Below are positions 8,025 through 44,900 of a stretch of 64,000 nucleotides of DNA, in pieces (within the stretch, counting starts at the first letter, position 1; every line of letters starts with the position of its first letter). The DNA is from an uncultured bacterium. Its GTDB lineage: Bacteria > Planctomycetota > UBA8108 > UBA1146. The stretch covers positions 42,987-106,986 of the forward strand of contig CALJGL010000023.1 in the NCBI GenBank assembly GCA_938075155.1, written 5' to 3'. The notes below the pieces were generated by a model, which saw only the letters and a list, made by a program, of their open reading frames with translations, ran no database searches and was not told the DNA's origin. The position numbers and the translations under genes are program-made.

Positions 8025-9482
8025 TCAAGGTAACTTCCGTTCCTCTTCTCTTCCTAGAAGGTCGATTTCGTGCTTCTGCCTTTGGTATCGACGCCAGATG
8101 TCTCCCGTTTCCCAACGTGGGGGAGTCAACTCTAACTCCCAATCTTTAAGAAGACCCATAAGTTGCTCCACCCGCTCGGGTTCTTCCATAGCACGATTGG
8201 TGGTTTCACCGGGATCAAGAGAGAGTTGGACGAGTATCGGTTTCTTGTAACCAGAGTTCTCTTTCTCGATACGTATGAGCTTCCAATCCCCCTGTCGAAC
8301 TGCTGCTGCGACTGTACGTCTCCAATATAGAGTTTCACGTGAGATCACATGAGTGCTGTCTTCGAGGAGAGGAAGAAGATTGAGACCGTCTAGCTCAGGG
8401 GATGGGGTATGAGTCTTAGAGCCTGCAACAGCAAGAAATGTGGGAGTGAGATCCAGACTGGATATTAGGGAAGAATTCTCTCCGGAATCGAATCGATCTG
8501 GCCAATGGAAGATAAACGGAACTCTATGGCCCCCTTCCCATTTACTTCCTTTCATTCCTCGCCATGTCCCATTGTCAGAAGCATTGTTTGTGGCTCCTCC
8601 ATTGTCGGAGAGGAAGACGATCAAAGTATCTTTTTCGATTTGTTTTCGTGAAAGAGCGGATCGAATCTTTCCGACACCTTCGTCCAGTGCCGCGACCATG
8701 GCTGCATACTTTCGGCGTTTAGGGTTTTTTATCGATGTGTATTTTTCGAGCAGGTCAGGGCGGGCGTGCATGGGGGTATGGGGAGCGGTGTAAGAAAGCA
8801 TCAGGAACAAAGGTTTGTCGGTTGTGCTTTTTTGGATCAGTCGGACTCCTTCATCCGTGATCCAATCGGTGAAATATGAAAAAGATGATTCTGGTACATG
8901 CTCACCATCTCGTTCGAGAAGTCTCGATTTGGAGAGAGGTTTTTCGAGAACAGGGAAATATGATCGGGAGCCCCCGAGGATTCCTGAAAAATGATCAAAG
9001 CCTAAGGATCGAGGATGGTTATGAGTTTGAGCACCGAGGTGCCATTTACCCACGAGTGCTGTTTGGTAACCCACGCTTTTCAAGCGTGAGGCCAGTGTGG
9101 ATGTCCCCGCGAGTAGACCCGTTCCAGCTCCTCCCAAATTACATTCAAAGCCCTGGGTTTGAGGATATCTGCCCGTCAATAAACCCGCACGGGAAGGAGC
9201 ACAAACGGAGGCGACCACATGGGCATCGGTACAAACAATCCCTTCAAGTGCAATGCGGTCGAGCTGGGGAGTTGAGATATCGGAGACTCCCGTGAATCCC
9301 AAATCGGAATAGCCCAGGTCATCGGCGACGATAAGAATGATGTGGGGTGGGCTCTTCGGACTGATCTCAGCGGAACGCTGAAGGGGCCCAGAACACCCGA
9401 TGGCCCCGAGAAAAACCCAAAAAAATGCAGAGAGAACCAAAAATAAATTCGTGGCAGGGGGAGATCCCGAATTGAAGGCCAT
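8025..9482 (-). CDS. Secreted sulfatase (formylglycine-dependent arylsulfatase family). The ORF track starts at 9602; the internal Met at 9482 gives a proper signal peptide.
   Basis: ILIVADDLGYSDLGFTG and the C-x-P-S-R fGly motif CAPSRAGLLTGRY. N-terminal hydrophobic signal. Confidence 0.85.
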   Translation of the reverse strand: MAFNSGSPPATNLFLVLSAFFWVFLGAIGCSGPLQRSAEISPKSPPHIILIVADDLGYSDLGFTGVSDISTPQLDRIALEGIVCTDAHVVASVCAPSRAGLLTGRYPQTQGFECNLGGAGTGLLAGTSTLASRLKSVGYQTALVGKWHLGAQTHNHPRSLGFDHFSGILGGSRSYFPVLEKPLSKSRLLERDGEHVPESSFSYFTDWITDEGVRLIQKSTTDKPLFLMLSYTAPHTPMHARPDLLEKYTSIKNPKRRKYAAMVAALDEGVGKIRSALSRKQIEKDTLIVFLSDNGGATNNASDNGTWRGMKGSKWEGGHRVPFIFHWPDRFDSGENSSLISSLDLTPTFLAVAGSKTHTPSPELDGLNLLPLLEDSTHVISRETLYWRRTVAAAVRQGDWKLIRIEKENSGYKKPILVQLSLDPGETTNRAMEEPERVEQLMGLLKDWELELTPPRWETGDIWRRYQRQKHEIDLLGREEERKLP

Positions 9483-9896
9483 GATGAATCCTCTCAAATG
9501 TAGGTCGAGGCGGGTATTTGACCAGATCAGCATCTCACTTCTGTCGGTGAGATCCATACCCCAGATCAGCATAATTCGGTTCAATACCACTGTAGGGGTC
9601 ATTTTGAATAGAATTGAGTGGGAATTAAAAAAGGCGCACGGTGGGTTTAGAACCGTGCGCCGGAAGATAGAGATGAAGACTAAATAAGGTGGTCATGCAC
9701 TCTCCTCAAGGAATAAATCCCGACCACAAACGCATTCTATGAGTTAACAATATGGTTAACAAATGGAATATTTGAAAACTCTCAGAGGATGCCTGATCGT
9801 TCCTGATTGACATGGAAGTCCAATTTTGTCCCACTGTTGTTCAGGGGCGGGGGGGATCCGCACCCGAATGTTTGAAACGAATGACAGGGGGATCAA

Positions 9897-17063: not shown

Positions 17064-18809
17064 TTAACTGTCGAGCCAGTTCGCAAATGACCGAAGCATC
17101 TGCGAGATGACTTCTTGGCCTTCTGAGAAACTTTGCCACGTAAACCAGAATCCGACACCGGCTACCACAAGGGCAGAAAACACAGGAGCTAATTTAATCA
17201 GAGGTGAACTGGCTGTGACGCCCATTCGATCGATCACTCCCTCTTTGCCCAGAGTCAACAGAGTACCGATTCCAATCAGCGTGACACCCAATCCCATACT
17301 GAAGAATATCAGTATGACGATTCCAAGGGGGAGGGCCTGAAAGTGGGCGGCGACAAGAAGAATTGTGAAACCCGCCGGACAGGGGACGATGCCTCCACTG
17401 AGTCCCAGAGCGAGTAAATCCCTGAACCTGACTCCACCATCCTCACCCCAGCCTTTAGGAACATGCGAGTGATCGTGCGAGTGGTCATGCGAGTGGTCAT
17501 GCGAGTGATCGTGTGAGTGATCGTGTGAGTGATCATGTGAGTGGTCATGCGAGTGGTCATGTGAGTGACCGTGCGCTTGTCCTTTGAAGTGTCGGTAGCG
17601 GTGGCGTGCGAGGAACAGGCCAAACAGGATCAACATGACTCCAGAGAGAACACTAAAGGTCGTGGTAATCCAATTTTGATAGGTGGCTGACATCGATTTG
17701 TCGGCACTCCACTCGATCAATGACAAAAGTACGAGGCCAAGAAGAAAGACACTGGCGGTATGTGCGATGGTGACAATGATGCCTAGGACCACAGCGTCCC
17801 TGATGCGACCCCGAGTACCTACCAGATAAGCAGCGACCATCGTTTTACCATGGCCTGGCCCGAGTGCATGTCCCGCTCCATATATAAAGGCCAGAAGGAG
17901 AGCGAGCATGATCTCCCAGATGGCTGCTTTTCCAGAGACGATGGTTTCGACGATATTACCGATCTCTTCTTCTTCAGAGACCTGTGGTGGGTTGTCACCC
18001 TTTGCAATTTCGGGGGGACGAGTGGGTTTAAAGGTGTCTTTATCAGAGGTGTCTTTTTGACTTGAGAGGGGGTCTGACCCTTTCGATTTATTCAGCCATT
18101 GGCGAATCGAATCAGACGTGGGTGGATCATCTTCAAAAGGGTCAAAGGGCGTAGCACCTGGGTGAAAATGGAGTATTGAATTCCGACCTGGTGTGCGCAG
18201 AAAAGGACCTTGGTCCTCGATCAGTTCCGGAGCGGGATCAAGGATTAGAACTGAAAGAGCCGGGTCGTGGTCTTCCAGTGGAATCCAGGTGATTTGACTG
18301 GAAAGGCGATTGGTATGAGTGCCGTCATGCCAGTGGAGCCACCAACCACCCGCGCCCCAAGGAGCATCGTCAGGAAGTGCTGAAGGAAGTTGACCTACCA
18401 GTGTGAAATAAACATCAAAAGCTCTCGCACTGACGGATCCTTGCAGGCCTTCTTCTTCGATGGTTTTCAGTTCTAGAGGGATTTTTTGCCCATTGATTTG
18501 GAGGCTTAAATCTGGAAGCAATGAACTGAGTAGGTTTTCCAAATAAGGACGCCACTCAGCCTCTTCGACTCGTTCATTATTGTTGGCATCGAGATTGGAG
18601 AGGACCGGAAAGCCAGAAGAGGCACTCCAGCCGTGATTAAAAAGCATGACCAATTCTGAGCCACGAAGTGTAAAGGTGACTTGAGTGCCGACACCCTCCA
18701 ACAATTCGTGAGCCTGGACCCGCCGTTGAGTCGAACTGCCGAAGAGTACGGTCAGAGTCGTGATTAGTAGCAGGTATTTCATTGCGCTGGTTTTCAGCAT
18801 GCTTCCCAT
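17064..18809 (-). CDS. Fusion protein: N-terminal periplasmic domain with signal peptide, plus a C-terminal NicO/RcnA-like Ni/Co efflux permease with an (HSHD)9 His-rich loop. The alternative start at 18782 (MKYLLL) removes the overlap with uvrD.
   Basis: HALGPGHGKTMVAAYL and GGIVPCPAGFTILL parallel E. coli RcnA HGLEPGHSKTMMAAF and GGLIPCPAAITVLL. His-rich tract HGHSHDHSHD... sits between TM helices. Confidence 0.75.
   Translation of the reverse strand: MGSMLKTSAMKYLLLITTLTVLFGSSTQRRVQAHELLEGVGTQVTFTLRGSELVMLFNHGWSASSGFPVLSNLDANNNERVEEAEWRPYLENLLSSLLPDLSLQINGQKIPLELKTIEEEGLQGSVSARAFDVYFTLVGQLPSALPDDAPWGAGGWWLHWHDGTHTNRLSSQITWIPLEDHDPALSVLILDPAPELIEDQGPFLRTPGRNSILHFHPGATPFDPFEDDPPTSDSIRQWLNKSKGSDPLSSQKDTSDKDTFKPTRPPEIAKGDNPPQVSEEEEIGNIVETIVSGKAAIWEIMLALLLAFIYGAGHALGPGHGKTMVAAYLVGTRGRIRDAVVLGIIVTIAHTASVFLLGLVLLSLIEWSADKSMSATYQNWITTTFSVLSGVMLILFGLFLARHRYRHFKGQAHGHSHDHSHDHSHDHSHDHSHDHSHDHSHDHSHDHSHVPKGWGEDGGVRFRDLLALGLSGGIVPCPAGFTILLVAAHFQALPLGIVILIFFSMGLGVTLIGIGTLLTLGKEGVIDRMGVTASSPLIKLAPVFSALVVAGVGFWFTWQSFSEGQEVISQMLRSFANWLDS
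17462..17572 (-). repeat. 12-nt tandem repeat (about 9 copies) encoding the (HSHD)n metal-binding tract of the transporter
   Basis: gtgatcgtgcga / gtggtcatgcga units repeated head to tail within the coding sequence. Confidence 0.8.
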
Positions 18810-21064
18810 TCCTCATCCGGTGGCGATATCGGTGTCAGGGGCGCATAGGCGACGACGAGTTGTCGCTCTTCACCATTTTCAAATCGAACGGTGATGCGGC
18901 GAGATGAGCCGTATCCCTGGACAGTATTGACTCTGCCTCGTCCCAGTAATTCATGTTGAACCCATGCACCGGGGTGGAGTCCATCGTCTTCCTCAGAGTC
19001 ATGAGCACTCTCTTCGTCCCATACTGTAGGAGAAGTGTGACCTGACCGAGAGGGGGATCGATCAAATTCGATGGAAGTGCCTTCGAGTTCGCTAAGGAAG
19101 GAGGAGGGGAGTCGAGGTTCTCTCTCTTGGAATCGTCTTCGCCATGAACTATGGGTCAAAACCAATTCTTCCATGGCTCGTGTGACGCCCACATAGAGCA
19201 ACCTTTTTTCTTCATCAATGCCCTCTACTTCACCATGACGAGAGTGGGGAATCAGAGTTTCTTCGACTCCGATGATGATGACTTTTTCAAACTCCAGTCC
19301 CTTTGCCGCGTGCAAGGTCATCAATGAGACTTTTTCTTTCAGTTCTTCCTGACTATCGGCATCGGCTACGAGTGCGATGCGCTCTAGGAAAATCGTGAGG
19401 GGGTCAAAGTCGTCTTCATTATCCTCGTGTCTTTGGAGAGGTTGCTGGCGGGCGAGATCGAGGATCTCTTCGGTCTCTGCAGCGGCGGCAACCAGTTCTT
19501 GTAGGTTTTGTTCTCTTTCTTGCCAGTTCTCAGGTTCAGATCTTTCAAGATGAGAAATATATCCACTGGCTTCGATAGCCTGCTCGACAAGATCTGCGAG
19601 TCCACCCGAAAGTCGGTCTTCCAGTTTCTCTAAGACTTCTCGCAGATGATCGATCCCCTTTTTTGCTTTTCCTTTGATGCCCTCTGTGCAGTCGGACCTT
19701 CTCAGGTGTTCACCCATCGTTCGTCCATTAGAAATCGCGGCGTCTTGAAATCTTTCAAGACTGACTTTGCCGATCCCTCTTGCCGGTGTGTTGAAAATTC
19801 TTTGCAGAGCCACATCGTCACGGCTGGATCGGGCAGCTCTGAGATATCCGAGAATATCTTTGATTTCTTTTCTCTCGTAGAAAGACATTCCGCCGACGAC
19901 GGCGTATTGAAGTCTTCGTCGTACAAACTCTTCCTCGATAGCACGCGAGAGTGAATTGACCCGATAGAGGACAGCGATCTGGTCGCTGGACACCCCTTCT
20001 GAGAGCCAGGACTCGACGTGGTCACATACCCGGCGGGATTCAGTTCTTTCATCGTGCAGTTGTTGGACCCTGACGGCATTGCCGTCCGCATTTTCAGTGA
20101 ACAGTTCCCGGTGACCAAACTCAGATCCGGCGAGTCTGGAGGCGACTTCCAGGATCTGGGGGGTGGATCGATAGTTTTGTTCAAGAGTCACGACTTGATG
20201 TTGGGGGAAGTCTTCTCTGAAACGGTTGAAGTTATCGGGACTCGCACCTCTCCAAGAATAGATCGACTGGTCAGGATCACCCGTCACGCAAATATTGCTG
20301 TGACTCTGTGATAACAGTTTTGCGATCAGGTATTGAGGTCGATTGGTATCTTGGAACTCGTCAATCATGACGTACTGGAATCTTTCTTGAAGTCGTTCAA
20401 GAACGTCGGGATGTTCCGTCAGTAGTCGCACGACTAATAGAAGGAGATCGTCGAAGTCGGCAGCATCTCTTTCTTCCAGTAATTCTTGATATCTTCCATA
20501 CAGTTTGCCCAACTCCCGGTCGCGGAATGTTGCGGCTTGATCGATGGCGATCTCTGGAGAGACCATCTGATTCTTCCACTGACTGATCGTAGACATCGAA
20601 GCTCTTGGTGGAAAAGCCGTTCTGTCGAGTTGAAGTTGCTTCATCACTTCTGTGACGAGTTGTTTTTGGTCGACCGAATCATAGATCGAGAACTGACTCG
20701 TGTAAGGTTCGAGGCGGTGTGCGTGACGACGAAGGAGTCTTGCGCAAAAGGAGTGAAAGGTTCGGAGTACTGGCCGGTCTTCTTCGAGACCAAGTGCTGC
20801 AGAACCAAAAAATCCGTTGCCATGAAAGGAGTCGAGTTCTGGGATGGAGAGCAGTTGCATCGTTCTGCGAAGCATCTCTTCGGCAGCTTTGTTGGTGAAG
20901 GTGATGGCCAGAATAGAACCCGGGGCTATTCCGGAATGAACCATGTCAGCGATTCTTTGAGTCATCACCCGAGTCTTGCCACTGCCCGGGCCAGCGATCA
21001 CCACCAGAGGACCCGCGTGGTGCGAGACGGCTTCCTGCTGAGCTTTATTTAATCCCTCGCTCAT
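18794..21064 (-). CDS. uvrD: ATP-dependent DNA helicase, UvrD/PcrA/Rep family
   Basis: LNKAQQEAVSHHAGPLVVIAGPGSGKTRVMTQRIA (Walker A), DEFQDTN, QNYRST, and an extended C-terminal domain. 756 aa. Confidence 0.9.
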   Translation of the reverse strand: MSEGLNKAQQEAVSHHAGPLVVIAGPGSGKTRVMTQRIADMVHSGIAPGSILAITFTNKAAEEMLRRTMQLLSIPELDSFHGNGFFGSAALGLEEDRPVLRTFHSFCARLLRRHAHRLEPYTSQFSIYDSVDQKQLVTEVMKQLQLDRTAFPPRASMSTISQWKNQMVSPEIAIDQAATFRDRELGKLYGRYQELLEERDAADFDDLLLLVVRLLTEHPDVLERLQERFQYVMIDEFQDTNRPQYLIAKLLSQSHSNICVTGDPDQSIYSWRGASPDNFNRFREDFPQHQVVTLEQNYRSTPQILEVASRLAGSEFGHRELFTENADGNAVRVQQLHDERTESRRVCDHVESWLSEGVSSDQIAVLYRVNSLSRAIEEEFVRRRLQYAVVGGMSFYERKEIKDILGYLRAARSSRDDVALQRIFNTPARGIGKVSLERFQDAAISNGRTMGEHLRRSDCTEGIKGKAKKGIDHLREVLEKLEDRLSGGLADLVEQAIEASGYISHLERSEPENWQEREQNLQELVAAAAETEEILDLARQQPLQRHEDNEDDFDPLTIFLERIALVADADSQEELKEKVSLMTLHAAKGLEFEKVIIIGVEETLIPHSRHGEVEGIDEEKRLLYVGVTRAMEELVLTHSSWRRRFQEREPRLPSSFLSELEGTSIEFDRSPSRSGHTSPTVWDEESAHDSEEDDGLHPGAWVQHELLGRGRVNTVQGYGSSRRITVRFENGEERQLVVAYAPLTPISPPDEEWEAC

Positions 21065-21484
21065 CGATTCCTGACTCTTCCGCGAGGCCCTGCTGAGGAC
21101 CCAATTCTTGAATTAATGCCTCCCCGGGCGTTCAGGGGGACGTGGAGCATGGTCCACCCCAGAAACCATTTGGGCAAGCGGGACCCGTTGAGCAATCCCA
21201 TTGAGCCATGTTGGACGATTCGGACTATGCAGGATCATGAGGGCCAGAGGGGACTATTTGAAGGATGAAGACCTCTCAGGCGTGTTCAAGTTGACGGCCC
21301 CCCGTGGGTTACTTATGATCCTAGGCTGCCTTCGACTCATTCCCGTCACCTATCAGGTTGCCCGGGGCTCAGTTGGCCTGAGGCTGGATACTGATGCGTG
21401 GTACTGTTCCGAGTTCTGCAAATTCGATCGAATGGCAGTACCTACGACGTCTGAGTCGGTGATTCTTTCCCCTGAGGAGGAAAA

Positions 21485-22765
21485 TTGGATATTCAAGAAG
21501 AAGTCTCCATCCGCGAATTGATTCTCGACAGAGAGACTCATATCGATTTCTACCATGAAGTTCGCCAAGGCGTGACTTCCCGCAGAGACGCGATCGATGA
21601 ACTCGAATCGCTTATCGATGAAATCACAGATGATTTCAGAAGGGCGATCGCCTTAGATCTTTTGGGAAAAAGGGAAGAGGCGAAGGGGTTCCTGCGTAAT
21701 TGCCAGGACAATGCCATGTGCGTTCACTTGCTTGGAAAACTCAGCCTTGAAGAGGGGAATTCCAAAGAAGCTTTGGTCGTCCTTGAAACAGGATGGGCCA
21801 GCTTTGGATCTGTCGTTCCTAGGATCGGCATGTTGCTTTGCGAAGCAATGATTCATGAGCATCGTATTGATGAGGCTCGTGCATTGCTCTCCAAGTTGCC
21901 CGACTCTGTCGATCACCCAAGAATTTGTTACCTCGAGGGTCTGCTTCACCAACATGAAGGTGACTACGACGAAGCCTTGCAATTCTACTCCACTGCAGCG
22001 GAGGGGCGTCCCGAGGAAACACGATTCCAGTTCCGCCTCGGATACATGCATTCTCTTTATGGTGACGAAGAGTCCGCCATTGAGGCATACCGTATGTGCC
22101 AGAGGAGTACTCCACTCTACGCCAGAGCGATGATTAATCTCGGGCTTCTCTACGAAGACACCGATCGATACGAGGAAGCGATCACCTGCTACCGCATGGT
22201 TCTGCTTTCCAACCCTGATCATAACCGTGCACGTCTCTATCTCCGCGATGCAGAAGCTTCCCAGTCGATGTACTACGATAGGGATAAGGAGAAGGAAAAG
22301 GTACGTATGGGGCAGGTCTTGCAAATACCTGTTACCGAATTTGAACTTTCAGTACGTAGCAGAAACTGCCTTCAAAAGATGGGGATTCACACTCTGGGTG
22401 ATCTCGTCTCAAAAACTGAAGCCGAGTTGCTCTCCTACAAGAACTTTGGTGAAACGAGTCTCCAGGAGATTCGCAAGATCTTGGTTCAAAAGAATCTTCG
22501 TCTCGGGGAAAATTCTCAGAGAGGTGAGACCTCTCTTCTGGGGATGGACAGTGAAGCTCAGGCATTGCTGGGTGAGCCTGTCAGTATTCTTGAGCTTTCC
22601 AGTCGCAGTCAAAGATGCATGGACCGACTCGGCATCGAAACGATCTCAGATCTTCTTCAGCGCAATGAGTTGGAATTAGTGAGCCAGAAAAATTTCGGAG
22701 TGACCTCCCTCAATGAGGTGAAGCGTAAACTGACCGAGCGTGGCTTAACTCTGACCAGCGGATAG
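21485..22765 (+). CDS. TPR-repeat protein with two C-terminal RNA-polymerase alpha-subunit CTD-like (HhH) domains
   Basis: TPR-like repeats in residues 60-260. Two copies of an alpha-CTD-like segment: VLQIPVTEFELSVRSRNCLQKMGIHTLGDLVSKTEAELLSYKNFGETSLQEIRKIL and ILELSSRSQRCMDRLGIETISDLLQRNELELVSQKNFGVTSLNEVKRKL. Compare E. coli RpoA [48 protein letters not shown]. Confidence 0.7.
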   Translation: MDIQEEVSIRELILDRETHIDFYHEVRQGVTSRRDAIDELESLIDEITDDFRRAIALDLLGKREEAKGFLRNCQDNAMCVHLLGKLSLEEGNSKEALVVLETGWASFGSVVPRIGMLLCEAMIHEHRIDEARALLSKLPDSVDHPRICYLEGLLHQHEGDYDEALQFYSTAAEGRPEETRFQFRLGYMHSLYGDEESAIEAYRMCQRSTPLYARAMINLGLLYEDTDRYEEAITCYRMVLLSNPDHNRARLYLRDAEASQSMYYDRDKEKEKVRMGQVLQIPVTEFELSVRSRNCLQKMGIHTLGDLVSKTEAELLSYKNFGETSLQEIRKILVQKNLRLGENSQRGETSLLGMDSEAQALLGEPVSILELSSRSQRCMDRLGIETISDLLQRNELELVSQKNFGVTSLNEVKRKLTERGLTLTSG

Positions 22766-22774
22766 CGAGGGGAC

Positions 22775-23541: not shown

Positions 23542-24201
23542 ATGATCTCTACTCTGAATCTGTGCCTACTCCTAGCGACCCTCACACCGGGACCCATATC
23601 GGATCTCCCAGTTACGCTCCTGGTCCATCCGGGTTTGACCTCGATCGCATTCAGCCAATTCGTCGAAGAGTTGGAGAGTTCTGAGACGGATCGGTTCTAT
23701 GAGAGTGATTCGTTTCAGATTCCAGCAAAAATGACTGTGATAGGGAATGAGAACTCAGCGAAGTGGGATGGACTCGTCTTAGGTCTGGGGAGACAGATAA
23801 TTCTCCAGCATCTCAGAGAAGATCCTGATTTCGGATCCGAATCGTATCGAAACTCACTCCAAGCCATGGTTCTCTCGGATTCCCTCGAATCAAAACTGGA
23901 TTCAGGGCTGAGGGACCCTCTTCTAGATGCCCCCTGCTGGGTTCAGGAGACATGGAAACCGCAAGATACCGTTGAATTAGACTCCACAGTAAGATCTCGA
24001 TCCTTTCTCTCTCTCTGGGCAGATGATCCTATTCAGCCCACAGGTATCGACTCCAGCGACTCCGTTATTTGGGGTCTTGGAGCCACCATTGAGTTTCAGC
24101 AACTCGATTCTCAAGCAGATTCATGCTGGAGCCTCAGGATGACTGCGAACCTCGATAATCAGGGAGATAAGGGAGTCCTATTTCAGATCTGTTGGCATTG
24201 A
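23542..24201 (+). CDS. Hypothetical protein
   Basis: ORF only. Weak hydrophobic N-terminus. No family recognised. Confidence 0.25.
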   Translation: MISTLNLCLLLATLTPGPISDLPVTLLVHPGLTSIAFSQFVEELESSETDRFYESDSFQIPAKMTVIGNENSAKWDGLVLGLGRQIILQHLREDPDFGSESYRNSLQAMVLSDSLESKLDSGLRDPLLDAPCWVQETWKPQDTVELDSTVRSRSFLSLWADDPIQPTGIDSSDSVIWGLGATIEFQQLDSQADSCWSLRMTANLDNQGDKGVLFQICWH

Positions 24202-24319: not shown

Positions 24320-24397
24320 GGTGGGTGTAGCTCAGTCGGTTAGAGCGCCAGTTTGTGGTATTGGAGGTCGAGGGTTCGAGCCCCTCCTCCCACCCCA
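24320..24397 (+). tRNA. tRNA-His (anticodon GUG) with an encoded G-1 and CCA
   Basis: G-GTGGGTG-TA-GCTC-AGTCGGTT-AGAGC-G-CCAGT-TTGTGGT-ATTGG-AGGTC-GAGGG-TTCGAGC-CCCTC-CTCCCAC-C-CCA. The extra 5-prime G pairing with C73 is the tRNA-His hallmark. There is one U-U mismatch in the acceptor stem. Confidence 0.8.
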
Positions 24398-24402
24398 GCT
24401 TT

Positions 24403-24437
24403 TTTAAGGGAACCCTTAGGGGTTCCCTTTTTTCGTT
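24403..24437 (+). terminator. Rho-independent terminator after tRNA-His
   Basis: aagggaaccc-ttag-gggttccctt hairpin followed by TTTTTT. Confidence 0.75.
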
Positions 24438-24510: not shown

Positions 24511-24960
24511 TTAATCACCGTCTCTAGAGAATTTGCCTCGATCTTTTTTTATTCGTGATCTCTTTTTCTTATCATCCAGTCGTCGATGCTTACTCGAAAG
24601 TGTGGGACGAGTGGCGGTACGTTTTTTCTTTTTCTTTAACGACGACGATAGCCAATCCTTGAACCGTTCGAGAGCGCTCTGGCGATTTCTTGAGGCAGAT
24701 CGTTCCTCGCTGGCCAGTATTCGAAGGACACCTTCATTCCCTAGCCGAGAAATATGCTCTTTGAGGAGTCTTTGTTTTTCTGGGGGTGAGAGAGCATGGG
24801 TGTTCGTCACTGACCAACGTAACTCGACAGCGGTGGCTGAACGATTGGAATGTTGTCCACCGGGGCCGCCTCGGGTTTGTTGGCGCATATGAATCTCGGA
24901 CCATGGAATCCAGCGATCTTCTCGCCAGCATAATCCTCGTGTTCCATCAGGTGATTCCAT
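24511..24960 (-). CDS. arfB: Alternative ribosome-rescue factor ArfB (peptidyl-tRNA hydrolase, YaeJ family)
   Basis: GGQ motif in RGGPGGQHSNRSATAVELRW, plus a highly basic C-terminal tail (KKKKKRTATRP...KKKRSRIKKDRGK). About 140 aa. Confidence 0.8.
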   Translation of the reverse strand: MESPDGTRGLCWREDRWIPWSEIHMRQQTRGGPGGQHSNRSATAVELRWSVTNTHALSPPEKQRLLKEHISRLGNEGVLRILASEERSASRNRQSALERFKDWLSSSLKKKKKRTATRPTLSSKHRRLDDKKKRSRIKKDRGKFSRDGD

Positions 24961-29104: not shown

Positions 29105-31558
29105 TTGGTTTTGATCCAGAAATATTACTCTTCAAACTCATATTTGAAGTCCCTACTCATTTTAGGAATCTGCGTAGTTTCCCTCAGCTCTCCATTCGTC
29201 GGAGGACACGAGGAAGATCTGAAAGCACGAAACGTACTTCCTCCTTACAACGGGTCTGGATACAGAAGAGATGCTGGAGGGGTTCAACCCTTTGGTCCCG
29301 TCGGGGGAACTTCCAATGGAGTGGAATTACTCTCTTGGGTCACCCTCCCGGAGATGCAGGCGGGAATTTCCAATGGAAACGATTGCTGGGGGCATACGTC
29401 CGCTTCTGGACGCGAATATGCCCTGATGGCGCATTCTTCGGGGACCACTGTGATTGAGGTCACCAATCCCGGGAACGCTGTGGTGATCGATACCGTCGCT
29501 GGCCCTACAAGTCTGTGGCGCGACGTGAAAAGTTTCTCCACATTCGCTTATTCAGTGAGTGAAGGGGGTTCAGGGATCCAAGTGATCGACCTGACCGATA
29601 TTGATAATGGAGTCGTCTCTCTTGCTGGAACGATCAATGACGTGGGTTCAGCAGCGACTCACAATGTCGCTATCGATGAAGAGAGTGGATTTCTCTACCG
29701 CTGTGGTGGCGGTGGAAACGGCCTCAGGATTTATAGTCTCGCAGACCCCGGGAATCCAGTTTTCGTGGGAAGTTGGGGCGAGAGGTATGTGCATGATGTT
29801 CAAGTGAAAAGAATCTTGAATACGACCACGCAGATAGAGCGAGAGATCGCATTTGCTTGTTCCGGCAACAATCCTGCCGTTCTTGATATTGTAGATGTGA
29901 CCGACAAGGCGAATCCTATCGTGCTTTCCTCGACGCCATATGGAGGATCTCAGTATTCTCATCAAGGCTGGGTGTCAGAAGATAATAAGTTTTTCTACCT
30001 TGGGGATGAACTCGATGAAAATGGTTCTCAGGGGACGAAGACATACGTTTTTGATGTCAGGGTGTTGGGGTCTCCAAGCTTGGTGACGGAATACATCAGT
30101 GACAATCCATCCATAAATCACAATATGTACACTCTTGGAAATCGAATCTTCCAAGCGAACTACAGGAGTGGATTAAGAATTCTAGACGATACGAATCCAC
30201 TCAATATCACCGAGGTCGGATTCTTTGATACTGTCCCCGAGGATGACAACGCAGACTTCAGTGGCCTTTGGAGTTGTTATCCCTACTTTCCGAGTGGCAT
30301 TGTTATCGGGAGTGATATGCAAAAAGGCCTGTATGTATGGAGCATTCAGCCGGTTCCATTTGTCTTCGGATATCCTGCAGGAATTCCTGATTTGGTGAAT
30401 CCCGCTGGAGATACCCTCATCGTTGAGATCAATGCACAGACAGGGTTTTCAGTCGATAGTTCGACTCCCAGTCTCTGGGTCGATAATGGTGCAGGTTTCG
30501 TTTCCTCTAGCATGGTAGAGATCTCACCTGGAATCTTTGAAGGAAATTTCCCGCCTTCGACGTGTGGCTCGGAAATTCGTTGGTATGTATCTGCGGCTGC
30601 TTTGACGGGCGAAATTCAGTTTGATCCGCCGTCCTCTCCAGCAGGCTTCTTTGCAGCGACTTCCGGATCGGGATTGAATACTCTCATCAGTGAAGACATG
30701 GAAATCGATAACGGCTGGCAAGTGGGGCTTCCCTCGGATGATGCGACGACAGGGATCTGGACCCTTGGAGACCCTAACGGTACCGTCGCACAACCCGAGG
30801 ACGATAACTCTCAGGTGGGCAGTTTCTGTTGGTTTACCGGACAGGCTGCAGCGGGTTCAGGGGCCGGAACAAACGATATCGACGGAGGAACGACGACTCT
30901 TACTTCTCCGGTCTTCGATCTCTCTACGGCTACTGATCCTCAAATCTCTTACTTCCTTTGGTATTCCAACACTTCAGGAGCAAGTCCTTCAGCAGATGTT
31001 TTCCGTACGGAGATCAGTTCGGATGGGGGCGCAACATGGGCTCTTCTTGAAGAAGTTGGGCCTTCTGGACCGAATACAGCCGGAGGCTGGATACAGCGGC
31101 AGTTTAATCTCTCCGCATTTATTACGCTGACAAGTTCTGTCCAAGTTCGATTCATCGCTTCTGATCTGGGCTCACCTTCTGTGGTGGAAGCTGCGATCGA
31201 CGATCTCGTGATTTCTGACCTAGATTGTAATGATTGCAATGGTAACGGAGTGAATGACGCTACAGACATCGCCGCTGGGACGAGTGCAGACTCTAATGGA
31301 GATGGCATTCCCGATGAGTGTCAATGCACCCCCTTTATTCGTGGTGAATTGAATGATGATGGAGAAGTAGATATCTCGGATGCCATTCAGATATTGTTAC
31401 AACTCTTTAGCGGATCGCCTTCTCCCCAACCGGTGGAGAGAGCGGACGTGAACAGCTCTGGCAGCGTTGACATCGCAGACGCCGTTTACCTTGTGCAGTA
31501 TTTATTCCAAGGAGGAACGCCTCCCGGTTTCCCATTCCCAGTTGCGGACTGTAACTGA
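29105..31558 (+). CDS. Secreted LVIVD-repeat beta-propeller protein with a C-terminal dockerin-like module
   Basis: Signal peptide. LVIVD-like repeats (IQVIDLTD, GLRIYSLADPGNP, VLDIVDVTD). C-terminus GELNDDGEVDISDAIQILLQLF...ADVNSSGSVDIADAVYLVQYLFQGGTPPGFPFPVADCN. Confidence 0.75.
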   Translation: MVLIQKYYSSNSYLKSLLILGICVVSLSSPFVGGHEEDLKARNVLPPYNGSGYRRDAGGVQPFGPVGGTSNGVELLSWVTLPEMQAGISNGNDCWGHTSASGREYALMAHSSGTTVIEVTNPGNAVVIDTVAGPTSLWRDVKSFSTFAYSVSEGGSGIQVIDLTDIDNGVVSLAGTINDVGSAATHNVAIDEESGFLYRCGGGGNGLRIYSLADPGNPVFVGSWGERYVHDVQVKRILNTTTQIEREIAFACSGNNPAVLDIVDVTDKANPIVLSSTPYGGSQYSHQGWVSEDNKFFYLGDELDENGSQGTKTYVFDVRVLGSPSLVTEYISDNPSINHNMYTLGNRIFQANYRSGLRILDDTNPLNITEVGFFDTVPEDDNADFSGLWSCYPYFPSGIVIGSDMQKGLYVWSIQPVPFVFGYPAGIPDLVNPAGDTLIVEINAQTGFSVDSSTPSLWVDNGAGFVSSSMVEISPGIFEGNFPPSTCGSEIRWYVSAAALTGEIQFDPPSSPAGFFAATSGSGLNTLISEDMEIDNGWQVGLPSDDATTGIWTLGDPNGTVAQPEDDNSQVGSFCWFTGQAAAGSGAGTNDIDGGTTTLTSPVFDLSTATDPQISYFLWYSNTSGASPSADVFRTEISSDGGATWALLEEVGPSGPNTAGGWIQRQFNLSAFITLTSSVQVRFIASDLGSPSVVEAAIDDLVISDLDCNDCNGNGVNDATDIAAGTSADSNGDGIPDECQCTPFIRGELNDDGEVDISDAIQILLQLFSGSPSPQPVERADVNSSGSVDIADAVYLVQYLFQGGTPPGFPFPVADCN

Positions 31559-34059: not shown

Positions 34060-34508
34060 ACCCCAATTTCTTCAATTCAACTTCAGTATTCAAATGCGGT
34101 AATATTTCAATGATCCATGCATTTGAATGTTTAACAATTGGGACTGGTTTATCCGTATAGGTGCCCGGAAATGCCTTCCTAGTGGCATTGGCCGCTTTTT
34201 TGTATGCCCGGAATATGCTTGAGTTGTCTTAATGTATTGTTAATATTGCGTTATTAGTCATTCGGTTTGTAGGGATATTGTAAGCCTGCATGTTAGTCGA
34301 TTGGGTGGCTGAAACGCATTGGCACAACGACGATAGCGGAGTTTCTACGACTCTGATTCGTCCTAAATTCCCCAACTTCGTTTGGGGAGAAATGGCTTCA
34401 GCGAGCCATCTGGGAGGAGACGAAATGTCAGATCTTCACATGAAGTCTGTACACACTGTTTCTAAGAGATTCGAATCCAAAGAATCTTGGCAGGGCAGTG
34501 ACGTCAAA

Positions 34509-37500
34509 ATGGTATTGCTCACATTATTCACGGTCTTTGTAATGGGCTACTGTAGCCCGGCGCTTGAGGCTCAATCAGATCCTGTCCCGCCGGCAGCTCC
34601 AACAAACCTCGAATGCATCGTTGAAGTGGCGCATTTGGAACTTTCTTGGACGAATACGGGCGAATACGATCAGATTCTGATTCGTCGTAACGGAGTCCTC
34701 CTAGAGTATCTCAATGGTTCTTCCACGAGTTACCTCGATATGGACGTCCCTGCCAATTTCCACCTTTATTCCGTTCATGGAATGACGACGGGTGCAAATG
34801 GTCAGGCTGAGGGTGTGGGAGCAGAGTGTTCTGTCTTCCTTATTCCGCCTCCCATCGAGCCAGGATTAGAAGTTCCTGCAGCGCTGAATTTCTTGCCCAT
34901 TCCCCTGCCCGACAATCTCTTCGACTTTATTGCTGATCCTGATATGGCGATTGCTTTGGGTAAGGCATTCTTCTGGGATATGCAGGCAGGATCTGATGAT
35001 CAAATCGCTTGTGCGACATGCCATTATCACGCCGGAGCTGACAACCGTAGAACTCATCAGTTGTACAACGGTCACAATGAAATTTTTGACCTGACTGTTG
35101 CAAACGAACGTCTTACTGCAACTGATTTCCCGCTCCATAAGCTGGCAAACCCGAATGATAATACGTCTGCTGTATTACAGAGTGTCGATGACACCATAGG
35201 GTCTTCAGGAATCTTGCATTCAAATTTCCTCTCTCTTACAGAGGACGCCAATGGAGTTGTTGGTGAAGAAATCGTCAGTATTGAAAATGCAGATAGCATC
35301 AAGGTCAATTCAGACGGTACGCAGGTACAAATGCGTAATGTCACAGACAGGAACGCTCCCTCTGTGATCAACTCCATCTACTTCCTTGAGACCTTCTGGG
35401 ATGGAAGAGCGTCTTTCTGGTTCAACGGAAGAGACAACTGGGGTCCGAGAAACCCCGATGCCTTTGTCTACAAGGTTCAGCCAGGTGGAACAGTGACTCA
35501 GGAAAAAATTCTGCTCGATAAAGCCTCATTGGCTTCTCAGGCTGCTGGTCCGATTCTGAGTGGCAACGAAATGTCTGCCCATGGACGAGACCTTCTTAAG
35601 GTTGGCAAAAAGTTGCTGAGCAGAGAGCCTTTGGCGACTCAAACAGTACACCCTAATGATAGTGTTCTCGGAGGAATGAGTGACGCTACAGACGGAAAAG
35701 GACTCGGTGAGACGACCTATCAGGAATTGATTCAATCTGCTTTTGTGACATCCTGGTGGGCGAGTGATCAGCTCTTCGGACCTGATCTTCAGCCTCTTAC
35801 AGATGTCGATGGAAACCTTCTCACTGGTGTTCCCAATGGCGTTGATCAGTTTTCAATGATGGAAGTCAACTTCTCCCTCTTCTGGGGATTGTCCATCATG
35901 ATGTATGAGTCCACCCTAGTTTCGGAAGACTCTCCTTACGACCGTTGGTGGAGAGCTACGAGAAATCCCGCGGATCCAAATGGCGACATTAATGCTCTCA
36001 GTTCTTTGGAGCATGAGGGAATGTCTGTCCTCGCCGGTTCAACCTGCATGTTCTGTCATACGACCTCTCTTTGGTCCAGTGCTGGAACCAGCAAGATTTT
36101 AACCGTACTCGAGCCAGAGGCTTCAGAGATCGAAGCTCTATTAGAGCGCATGCCGATGAGGGATATGCAACTTTCGGTCTATGATGGCGGATTCTACAAC
36201 CTTGGAGTGACTCCAACAGTTGAAGATATTGGTCGTGGTGGTATTGATCCATTCGGGCATAGTTTCTCGATTGTGAGAACGTTCCAAGAGAAAGCAAATA
36301 TTCCCAACTTGGATGATGACGGAGACGGCATTCCAAACGGAGCTGACCCCGATTTCATTGCTCATGATTTTCAGCCGTTTGCTGATCATGTTCTAGTTGT
36401 CACTCCTCCTCCTGCTCCTTGGGAAGATACGAACATGGATGGCATGTTCAAGACTCCCTCATTGCGAAACGTTGAGTTGACGGGACCATACTTCCACAAC
36501 GGAGGTGCTGGAACCCTTGAGCAAGTGGTGAACTTCTATGCACGCGGAGGAAACTTCGTTGACACAAACCTCGATACATTAGCTCCTGAAATGATCCCGC
36601 AGCCATTCCTCTCTATTAATGAGCAGAGGAAGTTGGCCATGGTGGCATTCATGGAATCACTGACAGATGACAGGGTTCGTTGGGAAAAAGCTCCTTTCGA
36701 TCACCCTGAAATCAGAGTTCCAGAAGGCGCGCTCGCGAGTGATCTCAATGGAGATGTGATCGCCGGCACGAATACCGTGGCTATCGATCGATTCAAGACA
36801 GTTCCTGCAGTAGGTGCTGAAGGTCGAAGTGTAGAGACTGATTCTGCCGGTCGTCCTCTTGATCCTCTGGTGAAGTTTCTTCAGCCAAGGACTGTCAAGG
36901 ATCTCTCATGCGTTCAGACTGGAGAATCGGTAACGATGTCTTGGCTTCCGCAGGAGTTCCCCAACGACGCTTCAACAAGTTTTAAGATTCTAAGAAACAA
37001 TCAAGTCGTTGCAGTTCTGCCCGAAACGGCAGCAAGCTTCACTGACGATTCGATTCCTCCGGGTGAGCATCAGTACACCGTTCGAGGTGAAGACGCCCAT
37101 GAAGGTTTCAATGCACATTGCACGGTCCTGGTGAACCCACCAGCACCTGTTGATCTGTCCTCGAATGTGAACGTGAATCAGGTGAGTTTGCAGTGGACAA
37201 ACCCCTGGCCTTACCACTCCATCGATATTTTCCGCGATGGCGTAAAAGTGGGTGATCAGTTAGCCGGTACTACTGAGATCTTTGTTGATGGCGGCGTGCC
37301 TGCTGGTCATCACTCCTACGAAGTTGTCGGAAGAATTCTGTCGATCGTTTCGGGTAATCTCATCTTCAGTGAACCTGCAATCGTTGGAGCCGACCGTCAT
37401 CCTCTCGCTGCACAAATCTTGGGCTGTACTTCAGTCGCAATGGGACAGAATGAGGTGACTTGGGGTAATACGGAGCCCTATGACTCACTGCGTTTGCTTC

Positions 37501-39176
37501 GCAATGGAACATTGATCAGTGAACTGGATGGTCAAGCATCGTCCTACCTCGATACCACCTCTTTACCGGGTGAGTCGAACTACTCGTTGATTGCAACAGT
37601 TTCCGGACTGGATTCGACTGAGTCTGGCTGTCTTGTGCAGCGTGCGCCACTTCCTGTGGAGTCACTCAGCTGTGATAACAATGGCGGGATCGCCGTGTTG
37701 TCTTGGGTGAATCCGGAGCCGTGGGAGCAAGCTGAAATCTATCGGGACGGTCAACTGATCAATATTTTGACTCAGATCCAAAATACCTATCAGGATGATT
37801 TCCTGACAAACTCTGGTTCTGGTCTTCACAACTACGTCATCAAGACTTACTTCGACGGTCTGACCTCAGGAGAAAACTCCTGTGGAATCTTGGTTGCACC
37901 GACTCCGGTCGTCTTGTTCGAGTGCGAGCCCCTCTCGGGTGGTGTTCTGCTTTCTTGGACCAATACAGATACTTACGACCAGATTCAGATCATGAGAGGC
38001 AGTGAGCTTCTGGTGAATTTGGGTGGTGGGTCAACTCAGACCTTCGATGGTCAAGTCGCCAGTGGTGCAGTGATTTACACACTGACGGCTTCTAGAGACA
38101 ACATTACTGCAAGTTCTGTCCAGTGCATGGTGACTATTCCTTCAGCACCAGTTTCAGATCTTGCTTGTTCAGATAGCGCTGGAGGCATCCAGCTTTCATG
38201 GACGAATGCCGACAACTATTCCACGATCGATATTCTTCGAAATGGATCTGTGGTAGACACCATCGCTGGTGCATCAAGTTCATACCTCGATAGTGCCGCC
38301 GGTGGTGGAACCTCGTTGTATCAGGTTGTTCCCAGCAGTAACGGAGTTGCTTCAGGCCTCTCCAACACCTGTGGCGGATCGATGGCACCGCTGCCCATAA
38401 CAGGGTTGCAAGGTCAGTTGATCGAGAACTGTCAGGGAGATGTGCTCTTGAGTTGGAGTAACGCGGAGTCTTACGATTCCATCCGCTTAGAGCGTAACGG
38501 TATTCCTGTAGTGACCTTGGCTGGATCTCAAACTGAGACAACGATCGACGTGGGTGCCCATGGGTTTTACGAGCTTGTGCTTGTTCCAGCGATGGACAAC
38601 ATTGATGGCCCCGCTGTGAGTACCAGTGTTGATTATGTTGCTGAAGTGGTTTCTGCGCCCACCGGATTCTCTGGAAGTGTCGATTCCGATACTTGTCAGG
38701 CGACTCTCTCTTGGTCAAACCAGGGGACTTACTCTCAGATTCAGATTGTTTCTGCAGGAGAAGTTCTGAGCACGCTTGCCGGTGGAGTGAGTTCCGCATT
38801 GATCAATCTTCCTGGTGCTGGTGGATACGTCCTTGATTTGGTCGTTATCGGAGAATGTGGCACTCAGGCGAGTTCCGCCGATTCTGTCGCTCTTGATTGT
38901 TCCGTGAGATTCCTACGAGGCGATCAAAATGGAGACGGAAGTCTGGATATCTCTGACCCGCTCTCATTACTCGGATTCATGTTTGGTGCCGGAGAAGTGA
39001 CCTGTGAGGACGCTTCTGACGCCAACGATGACGGTAATATCGACGTTTCTGACGCTGTACGCATGCTTCAGTACCTCTTTGGAGGGGCCAGCATACCAGC
39101 GCCGATAAACGGCTGTGGAGTCGATCCGACCGCTGATGGGTTGGGTTGTGAGCAGGGAGATCCGAGCTGCTCCTAG
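34509..39176 (+). CDS. Giant secreted protein of about 1555 aa: N-terminal di-heme cytochrome c peroxidase-like domain, an array of about ten ~85-aa Fn3/Ig-like modules, and a C-terminal dockerin-like module. The ORF track begins at 34290; Met at 34509 gives a signal peptide.
   Basis: Signal peptide [22 protein letters not shown]. CxxCH x2 ([16 protein letters not shown]) and CCP signature [31 protein letters not shown]. Repeating LSWTN....YD.I.I.RNG modules. C-terminus [23 protein letters not shown]...[22 protein letters not shown]...[12 protein letters not shown]...C. Confidence 0.75.
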   Translation: [1555 protein letters not shown]

Positions 39177-41981: not shown

Positions 41982-44900
41982 GTGAACACCATGTTCAACA
42001 TTAACGAGAAAGAAACAAAGAGGAGAGGTTGGATGATCGCGAATGCGCTCATCATAACAATCTTTCTTGGTTCAGTTCTTTCCTCGACCAATGTCGAGGG
42101 ACAGATAGCAAATGTACCGCAGCCAACTTCAGAGTCGGTAGTAGTCCTCGGTGAGATCGAGAACATCTTCGTCGATGACATGGATGACATGTTCTCTGCG
42201 GGCTGGATTGTTGCAGACGGAGTAGCGGTCAGGATTCCAAGTGGATTACTGATAGACCTCCCTGCTAACCGTCTTACCCTCAGGGATCTCATGGCAGGTG
42301 CGTCACCGGAATGTCTTGCTAATGGAGAGTCCGGGTTGGCGAGCACTGATGAGTGTCTTCGTAATAAGAGCCTCCAGGGTGGTGGTGCGCAAATCCTTGC
42401 AAACCGTTTACAAGATGGATCTGTCATCGCTGGAGACGTCTTTTTGAATAAATCGATGACGGGTAACGTCGCTGGAGGAATCGTTCCTCCAACCGTCGGC
42501 GGATACGTTTCATACATCAATTTCCAAGACGGTTACTTTGTCGTCAATGGTTCAATGAATGAGCGTCCGTTTGCAGATGGCGGACCCGATAAGCGTGGTG
42601 TGATCTGTCGTATTAACGACCCAGAGACACGTCAAACGATTCAGAGCGGCTTAGGCTGTATCACTGGAATGCCAAACTGTAGTCCAGATCCACGATTCAC
42701 TATCGATCCGGATAACTACAGTTGGACGTTTGGAACTGGATACCCAGTGTGTATTCCAAGTACGGATAACACATCGGGTGAACGTGATGACGACAGTGGT
42801 GCGAACATTCTCACCGGTGCCGGTGACGAATTCTGCCCAATGTGGAATCGCAACTTTGAGGGACCACTGAATAGAACTGTGCCTGACTCGACCTTCTTTG
42901 TTCCTCTGGCAGTGGGTGATCCCATTGGTATTGAAGGAAACTTCGAAGTGATCAACGGCGTAAGATTCTTCTCCTCGTATGGAGGAATGGTTCAACTTGG
43001 TCTGAAGACCAAGAATGAAAATGATCAGCCAGATTACATGATTTATGACGAGGTTGAGGGCGACGTTCCTCCCTTTGACAATGCTAGAATCAAATCATTG
43101 GCTATCTGTTTCACAACAATAGATGACATGCATGTGAACCTTTACAAGATGCATAAAGATCCTTCCACGGGAAATGACATCGAGTACATCTGGGGAACTT
43201 CCCTCGGAAATCTCGGAGCCAGATTTAATGGAATCCCGCCTAACGCTGGTGGAATCAACAAGGTCGAATACGATCTAGATTTCCTTCTCGGAGCTCCCGC
43301 AGCTCACGGTCCATGTTTGAATCTCATTAATGGTGGTTTCAATGTCTGCCCTCAGGGTGGAACGATGGAAGAAGAAGTGGCTCTCATGAGCCCTACTTCG
43401 AGAGAAGTTGTGGGCCGTACACTGCATAGCATGTCTCTGAATCCGGGTATTTTCCCCAGAGATATTCTTGGCTTCGAAGCCCAGCATGGAATGTACATTA
43501 CTCCACAAGGTCAGGGACACCCTGAGTTTGTAGAGATCAATCTCGATAAGAACGGCTGGCCATTCATCTTCGAAGGAATGCCTTGGAACTTGGATCGACG
43601 TCTTGGCCCTGGTGGTTGTGACGAAGATGCAGGGTGTGAAAACCTTGCAACTAATCCGGTTGGAAGTTTTCCTCTTACTCCATTCCCTTCAGCGGGTGAC
43701 CCCGATTGGGTATCTCACTCCATCGGTAATGGTATTCCACCGTTCGCTTCGCAAAGAATGACAGCATTTCATCCCTTTGGAGAAAATGACTTTATGCAGC
43801 CATTCTCGGATATACCGGGACCTAATCCAGCACTGCCTGCAGGGCTGTCGGATGGATTAACGGCTGAACATTGTGATATTCCAAACGATATGCCATTGGC
43901 GATTCAGGATTCTCTGAGTGCAGATGAAGACCAAGTCGCAATGATTTCAGACCAGGATTTGCTACTGAATGATTCTGATCCGGATCTCGACCAACTTAGC
44001 CTATTCCATTACGAGTCAACAAGCTTGAATGGCGGTACGATTCAAAGAATAGGGGCTGGACTGGTTTATCAGGGAGCGCCTGATTTCAATGGTAGTGACG
44101 AGTTCCACTACAGTATCACTGATAATCATGGTGGAACCTCACGTGGAAAAGTCTTGGTTATCGTTGCTGCAAAGAACGATGCGCCTGAGGCTCACGCCGA
44201 TTTCTTGACTCCTCCAAGTGACATTTACACATTCCAGGCCGAATTATTGTTAGACAATGACAGTGATGTCGATGGTGACACGATCACATTAGTTTCGATA
44301 AATGAATCTGTGAGCGGGTCCTCTGGAACAATGACAACTAACGCAGATGGAACGTTCACTTTCACTTCAGACCTGAATAGCACGGGTCCCAGTGTTTGGG
44401 ATTACACCATTTCAGATGATCTTGGCGAAACGGCCTCTTCCACATTAACTTTCTATGTGGGTAACCAGGCACCGGTAGCGTCAGATGATAATGTTGTTAC
44501 TGACGAAGACGTCGAATTGGTGATCAATGCACTTAGTGGTGATTCCGATCCAGATGCCAACGATACCCTCGAAGTGGTGTCTACTGGATCTGCTTCCTTT
44601 GGTAGCGTCGAAAATCTGGGTGGTGGATTACTGCTGTACACTCCAGACCTTGATCAGTTTGGGAGCGACGCTTTTTCCTACACGATTACTGACGGTAAGG
44701 GACTTTCTTCAACAGCTACGGTAAACGTATCTGTACTTCCTGTGAATGACGCTCCAAGATTGGGCGCTGATATTGCAGTAACACTTGAAGACCAGCCTGT
44801 TCAGATAAATGTTTTGAATAATGATTATGATCCTGAAGGCGATGCCATGACGGTATCTCTGCCGATCATCAATGCGTTCAACGGTAGTGTTGAGTTACTT

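Follow-up and report, generated by a model that had tools for sequence, protein, structure and literature searches.

What would a bacterium do with the C-terminal domain of the RNA polymerase α subunit (αCTD) when this domain is carried, twice in a row, by a protein other than α? The question is raised by a gene at positions 21485–22765 (+) of a 64,000-nt stretch of DNA from an uncultured member of the Planctomycetota (GCA_938075155.1, contig CALJGL010000023.1); the whole of this stretch is referred to as the window. A preliminary description, made from the sequence alone, proposed that the gene encodes a tetratricopeptide repeat (TPR) protein with two tandem αCTD-like domains, and Pfam and PDB-sequence matches bore this out. 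In the studied bacteria the αCTD is the part of RNA polymerase that recognises upstream promoter DNA and to which activators pass their signals. How the Planctomycetota regulate their genes and organise their nucleoid is poorly known, and two αCTD copies on a separate, phylum-wide protein suggest that DNA or transcription in this phylum is subject to a further, so far unstudied, kind of control. We tentatively propose that the protein is a DNA-binding modular adaptor, by which a partner bound to the TPR domain would be tethered to DNA, plausibly at promoters, with or against RNA polymerase.

Domain composition of the gene product

In the program-made list of the window's open reading frames (ORFs) with translations, from which the ORF calls were taken, the ORF starts with TTG, ends with TAG and encodes 426 aa. 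It is a real gene. The TTG is the earliest possible start in the frame, and the starts of the homologues align with it. The product is cytoplasmic. It carries a net charge of -21, of which -20 falls on the N-terminus and the TPR region (family median -16); each CTD taken alone has a charge of +1 to +2.

The Pfam scan returned RNA_pol_A_CTD (PF03118) with E = 3.4e-41 in two stretches, and many TPR families over approximately aa 80–253. Scanned alone, each of the copies, named CTD1 and CTD2, exceeded the PF03118 gathering score of 23.8 (Table 1). The comparison with the RpoA CTD suggested in the preliminary description recovered the αCTD: the PDB sequences matched by phmmer were αCTD chains, 1COO and 1LB2 among them, with values near 1e-14 (CTD1) and 1e-10 (CTD2), and every match of CTD2 alone was an α subunit chain. 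CTD1 and CTD2 were 48% and 44% identical to the E. coli αCTD, respectively, and 47% identical to each other. Both have the αCTD fold, a compact helical domain with two non-standard helix-hairpin-helix (HhH) motifs, and both are members of the αCTD domain family PF03118. The similarity to α also takes in the end of its interdomain linker, as the alignment of phmmer with 1COO reaches into the C-terminal part of the connector in front of CTD1 (KEKEKVRMGQVLQIPV vs VKEEKPEFDPILLRPV). Within this connector the residues M262, Y264 and D265 are each conserved in at least 90% of sequences. The linker between the two CTDs measures 22–62 aa in the family (median 26) and is rich in E, L, G, A, D and P.

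The protein has the multiple 34-residue helix-turn-helix repeats of a TPR superhelix. The models TPR_1, TPR_2, TPR_8, TPR_16 and TPR_19 exceeded their cutoffs, and the AlphaFold2 (AF2) model contains 14 helices with a predicted local distance difference test score (pLDDT) above 90, a level reached by the TPR region. The best Foldseek matches of the full model in the PDB were a consensus TPR (CTPR), OGT, PEX5 and APC/C, generic TPR matches that gave no functional hint; the modelled region resembles peptide-binding TPRs such as those of PEX5, OGT and APC/C. The least conserved part of the protein is aa 1–60, with a mean frequency of the most common residue (top-residue frequency) of 0.36.

The closest known entity to CTD1 and CTD2 is the αCTD of RpoA (PF03118; PDB 1COO, 1LB2, 1Z3E). 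Unlike RpoA, the protein has no N-terminal domain of α (αNTD) and hence no α-like assembly into the RNA polymerase core, and it carries the αCTD twice per chain, behind a TPR domain, outside the rpoA gene cluster. A broader likeness, at the level of the fold class, links it to the AR1–AR2 region of NusA (PDB 2JZB), where two small HhH/SAM-like domains also stand in tandem at the C-terminus of a transcription-associated protein. The C-terminal acidic repeat AR2 of NusA binds the αCTD.

Conservation of the DNA-contact surface and the possible role of the protein

Over 81 loci the median identity to the window protein was 73% for CTD1 (minimum 61%), 56% for CTD2, 46% for the connector and 29% for the TPR region; RuvA and UvrD of the same loci showed 38% and 42%. 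CTD1 evolves about half as fast as these two proteins. Residue conservation was read from an alignment of 109 sequences, with the E. coli residue identities checked against the 1COO alignment, and the mean top-residue frequency was 0.86 in CTD1 and 0.72 in CTD2.

The functional determinants mapped onto both domains are those established by E. coli genetics. DNA binding by the E. coli αCTD depends on the 265 determinant (R265, N268, C269, G296, K298 and S299). The R265 position was Arg in 100% of both CTD1 and CTD2, and the G296 position was kept in 100% of both. C269 was kept in 100% of CTD1 and 92% of CTD2, N294 in 99% and 100%, and S299 as well as E302 in 100% and 99%, respectively. Together with the N268 and K298 positions these make up the DNA-contact set, which was the best conserved class in both domains: its mean top-residue frequency reached 1.00 in CTD1 and 0.96 in CTD2, as against 0.93 and 0.79 for the hydrophobic core and 0.81 and 0.62 for the remaining positions. 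When non-core positions were drawn at random, P was 0.0013 for CTD1, and not one of 20,000 such sets came up to the value of CTD2. The acidic pair D259/E261, which contacts sigma region 4 in E. coli, was kept in CTD1 (D or E in 100% and E in 100%, respectively) and was not acidic in CTD2. At the 287 determinant (V287, R317), used by CAP-type activators in E. coli, the V287 position was A, Q or P in CTD1 and L, V or A in CTD2, and R317 was not kept.

In the adaptor that we propose, the acidic TPR superhelix would be the platform for binding a protein partner, and the two RpoA-derived αCTD modules would hang from it on flexible tethers. Both modules would touch DNA, in the minor groove and along the backbone, through the HhH surface centred on the Arg that matches R265. 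The protein would in this way tether its TPR partner to DNA, most plausibly at promoters, where it might provide extra αCTD-type contacts beside RNA polymerase or take UP-like sites from the polymerase's own α subunits. The disordered linker of 22–62 aa would be long enough to place the modules on neighbouring DNA sites, just as the two α tethers of RNA polymerase let the αCTDs occupy neighbouring sites on UP elements. An action at promoters, with or against RNA polymerase, is favoured because CTD1 keeps the sigma-contact-type acidic pair and is itself nearly invariant. The analysis shows which domains and folds the protein has, how they are conserved, how the family is distributed and which genes surround it; its binding of DNA, the kind of partner held by the TPR domain and its tie to transcription are inferred.

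Several observations weigh against the adaptor. DNA binding by the CTDs is a prediction from the conservation of the αCTD surface, in a protein that is acidic overall (net charge -21), and the gene context names no consistent TPR partner. In all 109 sequences the K298 position is Thr in both domains, the K297 position is Glu in 99% of CTD1, and the N268 position, Asn in 98% of CTD1, is Arg or Lys in 95% of CTD2. G296, N294 and S299 may be conserved for structural reasons, and the unusual residues, which were scored against the E. coli αCTD, may be typical of the planctomycete αCTD. Because of the changes at K298, K297 and N268, canonical UP-element recognition should not be assumed, and the invariant K298T with K297E means that the mode of DNA binding may differ from the canonical one. 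A further difference from the αCTD of E. coli RpoA is the Lys at the P293 position (100% of CTD1 and 92% of CTD2), and one might speculate that this Lys and the Arg at the A267 position compensate for the three changes. The recognition motif R..N.L, ascribed to each copy in the preliminary description, was present in CTD1 and absent from CTD2 (N268 position). The suggested binding of AT-rich, UP-like DNA agrees with the 92–100% conservation of the DNA-contact positions and is at odds with the Thr at K298, the Glu at K297 of CTD1 and the Arg or Lys at N268 of CTD2.

The derived residues S263, R267, T277, K293, F295 and T298 are common to both copies, which suggests that the module first became separate from rpoA and was then duplicated within the protein, unless the shared residues are typical of planctomycete RpoA. 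The protein is a natural experiment on the capacities of the αCTD without the rest of α. It also offers a defined target, with the conserved arginines R291 and R374, a 165-aa fragment that is soluble and relatives that are open to genetics, and it is the extreme conservation of CTD1 combined with altered DNA-contact residues that makes this target good.

Other roles would use the same domains differently. As a phylum-specific transcription accessory, which we consider unlikely, the protein would hold RNA polymerase or the primary sigma factor by its TPR domain and supply αCTDs in trans, as readers of upstream DNA or as a global competitor for UP-like sites. If so, it would be a promoter-recognition component absent from any studied bacterium, and the competitor version would set rRNA and growth-rate control. 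In a stronger version the protein would make up for an αCTD that is reduced or altered in the RpoA of the phylum itself.

It is just as improbable that the modules serve as αCTD decoys, titrating α-docking proteins (activators, Spx-like proteins, NusA-type proteins or sigma region 4 surfaces) away from RNA polymerase, with the TPR domain controlling or localising the titration and no need for DNA binding. True αCTD folds in both modules, the acidity of the whole protein, the 261-type acidic patch kept in CTD1 and the loss of K297 and K298, lysines that aid DNA binding in E. coli, would all suit such a decoy. It is weakened because selection is strongest on the DNA-contact positions, the best conserved ones in both domains; the 287-determinant positions vary and R317 is not kept, and the near-invariance of CTD1 across classes fits a universal ligand, either DNA or the core transcription machinery, better than lineage-specific regulators.

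A nucleoid-associated organiser has a similarly low probability. In this case self-association through the TPR domain would produce a multivalent protein that binds DNA largely irrespective of its sequence and shapes the planctomycete nucleoid, with no action at promoters. The two tethered HhH modules per chain, the phylum-wide conservation and the housekeeping gene context speak for it, and related proteins with 3–10 αCTD repeats (see below) suggest that the αCTD can be a generic DNA-binding repeat. Oligomerisation is an assumption of this reading, the protein is acidic overall, and a generic DNA binder would not need the sigma-contact-type acidic pair that CTD1 keeps.

Distribution of the family and gene context

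A search over 5.8 billion proteins gave 7,953 significant matches among 8,000 scored candidates. Almost all of the best 120 were 420–460 aa long and covered nearly the full query at 37–98% identity; for family matches the length was 418–485 aa and the query coverage 86–100%. The window protein shares with them the domain order, the length, the full-length alignability and the CTD1 motif FELSVRSRNCL...KNFGETSL, and it has all invariant columns. It is an ordinary member of a Planctomycetota family, designated here TPR–2×αCTD, and shows no architectural difference. An exhaustive search of 1.84 billion representatives with a hidden Markov model of the double CTD yielded 479 clusters at 50% identity (E ≤ 1e-30), and almost all of the best 150 clusters were proteins of about 440 aa that end in the CTD pair.

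At least 590 loci were found in a scan of one genome per species. The locus analyses covered the best 80 of them, in which distant clades may be under-sampled. Seventy-five of these 80 were labelled Planctomycetota (Gemmatales, Pirellulales, Planctomycetales, Phycisphaerae), the closest being 'Planctomycetes bacterium UBA1146' with 77% identity. All 80 came from different assemblies, which hints weakly at a single copy per genome. Two loci, L003 (JAFMMO010000216.1) and L069 (JANQQE010000021.1), belong to metagenome-assembled genomes (MAGs) labelled 'Proteobacteria' and 'Alphaproteobacteria' and are of planctomycete type; L003 has the gene order of the window (UvrD / TPR-αCTD / RuvA). These labels are probably binning or labelling errors and not signs of a family outside the Planctomycetota. 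The combination of TPR with a double αCTD, the distribution of which was raised in the preliminary description, proved widespread in the Planctomycetota and generically named in databases. The named entries come from Planctomycetota MAGs and are called by PGAP 'DNA-directed RNA polymerase subunit alpha C-terminal domain-containing protein' or 'tetratricopeptide repeat protein' (e.g., MEE2889971.1), and by JGI 'RNA polymerase subunit alpha'. Full-text literature searches on the function of the family gave nothing relevant. The family is already catalogued by its domains and the architecture itself is no discovery; the new aspect is the reuse of the αCTD outside the polymerase, in tandem and on a TPR scaffold. 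In a 461-aa protein on a 1,534-bp ENA contig (P0107), the last TPR helix and the CTD pair of the family are preceded by an N-terminus that is lipoprotein-like and not of TPR type; this protein was set aside as a probable chimeric assembly in view of the single short contig and the abrupt switch into family sequence.

PF03118-type modules are reused outside RpoA in other proteins as well. Models of the BREX kinase PglW matched the αCTD region at aa 279–340 (22319–22504), NCBIfam NF033442 with 31.4 bits (model positions 777–865) and PADLOC with 33.6 bits over positions 803–864 of a 1,403-position model. The RNA polymerase β' model NF011498 (positions 1320–1371) matched the same region, and both PglW and the NF011498 β' proteins seem to have αCTD-like modules themselves. 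Unlike the TPR–2×αCTD protein, PglW is a 1,400-aa kinase encoded in a defence operon. No kinase domain was found by Pfam in the window protein, the neighbouring genes matched no defence models besides generic UvrD-type helicase ones, and the window held no other BREX genes. A defence (BREX/PglW) function was rejected, as there is neither a kinase nor a BREX neighbour and the match is confined to the αCTD segment. Arrays of αCTD repeats were seen in uncultured organisms (P0138, P0177, P0248, P0277 and P0282). P0138, of 1,031 aa, has 10 PF03118 stretches (452 bits) and the others have 3–4 or more; one locus (L082:2350-9096; ENA ERZ25070167 ctg335963) carries three αCTD-repeat genes side by side, for products of 119, 919 and 1,031 aa. 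Unlike the TPR–2×αCTD family, the arrays have no TPR domain and no fixed two-copy layout, and they indicate that αCTD reuse outside RpoA is wider than this family alone.

In this genome the gene is probably co-transcribed with ruvA, as the preliminary description proposed, because the gap is 9 nt (not 10 nt, as had been given) and neither a terminator-like nor a + strand promoter-like site is predicted between the two genes. The context set comprised 82 loci, i.e., 81 relatives and the window, and the downstream gene within 700 nt was scored in the 77 loci with enough sequence. Directly downstream stood ruvA on the same strand in 17 loci, a spoIID-like gene in 16, tgt in 12, a convergent ruvA in 2 and another gene in 30; tgt lay within 2.5 kb in 25 of the 77, often with yajC and secDF behind it. 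Among the 72 loci with enough upstream sequence the divergent gene was uvrD in 10, ffh in 8, of kdsA type in 8 and of murA type in 5 (tblastn count). The NicO-like membrane protein gene (17064–18809, -), which overlaps the 3' end of the helicase gene in the window, was kept adjacent in 10 of the 72 loci, as was uvrD, in the closest clade only.

In the neighbour-joining tree of the family the contexts sorted by clade. The NicO–UvrD/RuvA context marks the clade of the window, a sub-clade of the PGAP-named family with the gene between divergent uvrD/pcrA and ruvA, and RuvA with or without Ffh marks its sister group. SpoIID–Tgt–YajC–SecDF belongs to the Phycisphaerae-type loci and MurA/Tgt–YajC–SecDF to the Gemmatales-type loci. 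The ruvA linkage persists down to 36% protein identity and goes far back in one part of the phylum. As a family trait it did not hold up: no consistent association with ruvA, ruvB or ruvC was found, and the adjacency, which tracks phylogeny, seems to reflect the way in which particular lineages arrange housekeeping genes in operons, and not a functional signature of the family. In our reading, a single core gene has been passed on vertically amid housekeeping neighbours that vary between lineages. Such neighbours, together with one dominant architecture in at least 590 genomes, fit a core cellular role.

These data bear on a recombination or repair accessory, in which an HhH DNA binder would act with RuvA and UvrD/PcrA at branched or damaged DNA and its TPR domain would recruit enzymes. 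The two neighbours in the window suggest such a function, and we regard it as quite improbable, since the ruvA/uvrD synteny is limited to clades. The PcrA_UvrD_tudor domain, present in the divergent helicase, binds RNA polymerase in PcrA/UvrD.

The preliminary description was also right that the protein is not the true RpoA. Pfam found no αNTD (RNA_pol_A_bac, RNA_pol_L) in it, tblastn with the E. coli αNTD had no match in the window or in the 81 related loci, and no second αCTD was found elsewhere in the window. The NCBIfam rpoA equivalog models aligned by their C-terminal ends only and scored far under their cutoffs (TIGR02027, 124.8 bits vs 227.8; the best PRK05182 model, 131.4 vs 302), and the neighbours (uvrD/pcrA, the NicO-like gene, ruvA and tRNA-His) are not those of a ribosomal-protein/rpoA cluster. 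JGI labels some family members 'DNA-directed RNA polymerase subunit alpha'. That the protein is nevertheless the RpoA of the organism, or what truncation or misassembly has left of it, can be dismissed with near certainty, as the αNTD is absent and the full-length architecture, at a conserved length, recurs in hundreds of genomes.

Features of the locus and other genes in the window

Table 1. Coordinates of the TPR–2×αCTD gene, its parts and the adjacent features in the window
Feature	Position	Strand	Evidence or remark
UvrD/PcrA-type helicase, C-terminal Tudor	18794..21064	-	Pfam UvrD-helicase, UvrD_C, PcrA_UvrD_tudor; divergent
Shine-Dalgarno-like GGAGG	21476..21480	+	4 nt 5' of TTG; read from sequence
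TPR–2×αCTD gene	21485..22765	+	ORF list; Pfam, NCBIfam and PDB matches; database protein P0001 98% identical
N-terminal helical region, aa 1–60	21485..21664	+	AF2 helices 9–15, 22–31, 36–46, 50–59
TPR superhelix, aa 61–253	21665..22243	+	Pfam TPR_1/2/8/16/19, AF2, Foldseek, charge
Conserved connector, aa 254–279	22244..22321	+	'MYYD.E.EK' motif, helix 266–279; alignments A1, A2
αCTD copy 1 (CTD1), aa 280–341	22322..22507	+	PF03118, 84.4 bits scanned alone
Flexible inter-CTD linker, aa 342–364	22508..22576	+	AF2 pLDDT <50 at residues 345–355
αCTD copy 2 (CTD2), aa 365–423	22577..22753	+	PF03118, 67.1 bits scanned alone
Spacer between stop codon and ruvA, 9 nt (CGAGGGGAC)	22766..22774	+	GAGGGG ribosome-binding-like motif inside
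ruvA, 199 aa	22775..23374	+	TIGR00084, 173.2 bits; RuvA_N, HHH_5, RuvA_C

The divergent helicase gene and the TPR–2×αCTD gene are separated by 420 nt, in which no RNA element was matched by Rfam. A promoter-like site at 21291–21319 (10/12 matches) was dismissed, as shuffled sequences gave as many.

Behind ruvA, an ORF of 219 aa (23542–24201, +) had no Pfam or PADLOC match, and tblastn recovered it from none of the 81 related loci, not even from the 77%-identical relative; the ORF is perhaps spurious, or its sequence changes very quickly. No terminator was predicted between ruvA and tRNA-His (GTG anticodon; 24321–24397, +). The tRNA gene is followed by a strong intrinsic-terminator-like hairpin (24406–24429) with a 10-bp stem and a T-run.

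Further along, a gene at 24511–24960 (-) encodes a protein of 149 aa. It has an RF-1 domain (53 bits), its C-terminal tail is very basic, and it looks like a ribosome-rescue peptidyl-tRNA hydrolase of the ArfB/ICT1 type. Three genes for very large proteins stand in a row at 34290–39176 (+), 39466–41949 (+) and 41982–46478 (+). The first product has 1,628 aa and a CCP_MauG-like segment, the second 827 aa, and the third 1,498 aa with eight Big_9/cadherin-like repeats (438 bits); they are probably destined for the cell surface. Large surface proteins, together with a sulfatase (8025–9602) and a dockerin-domain protein (29105–31558), which are also encoded in the window, are typical planctomycete gene content.
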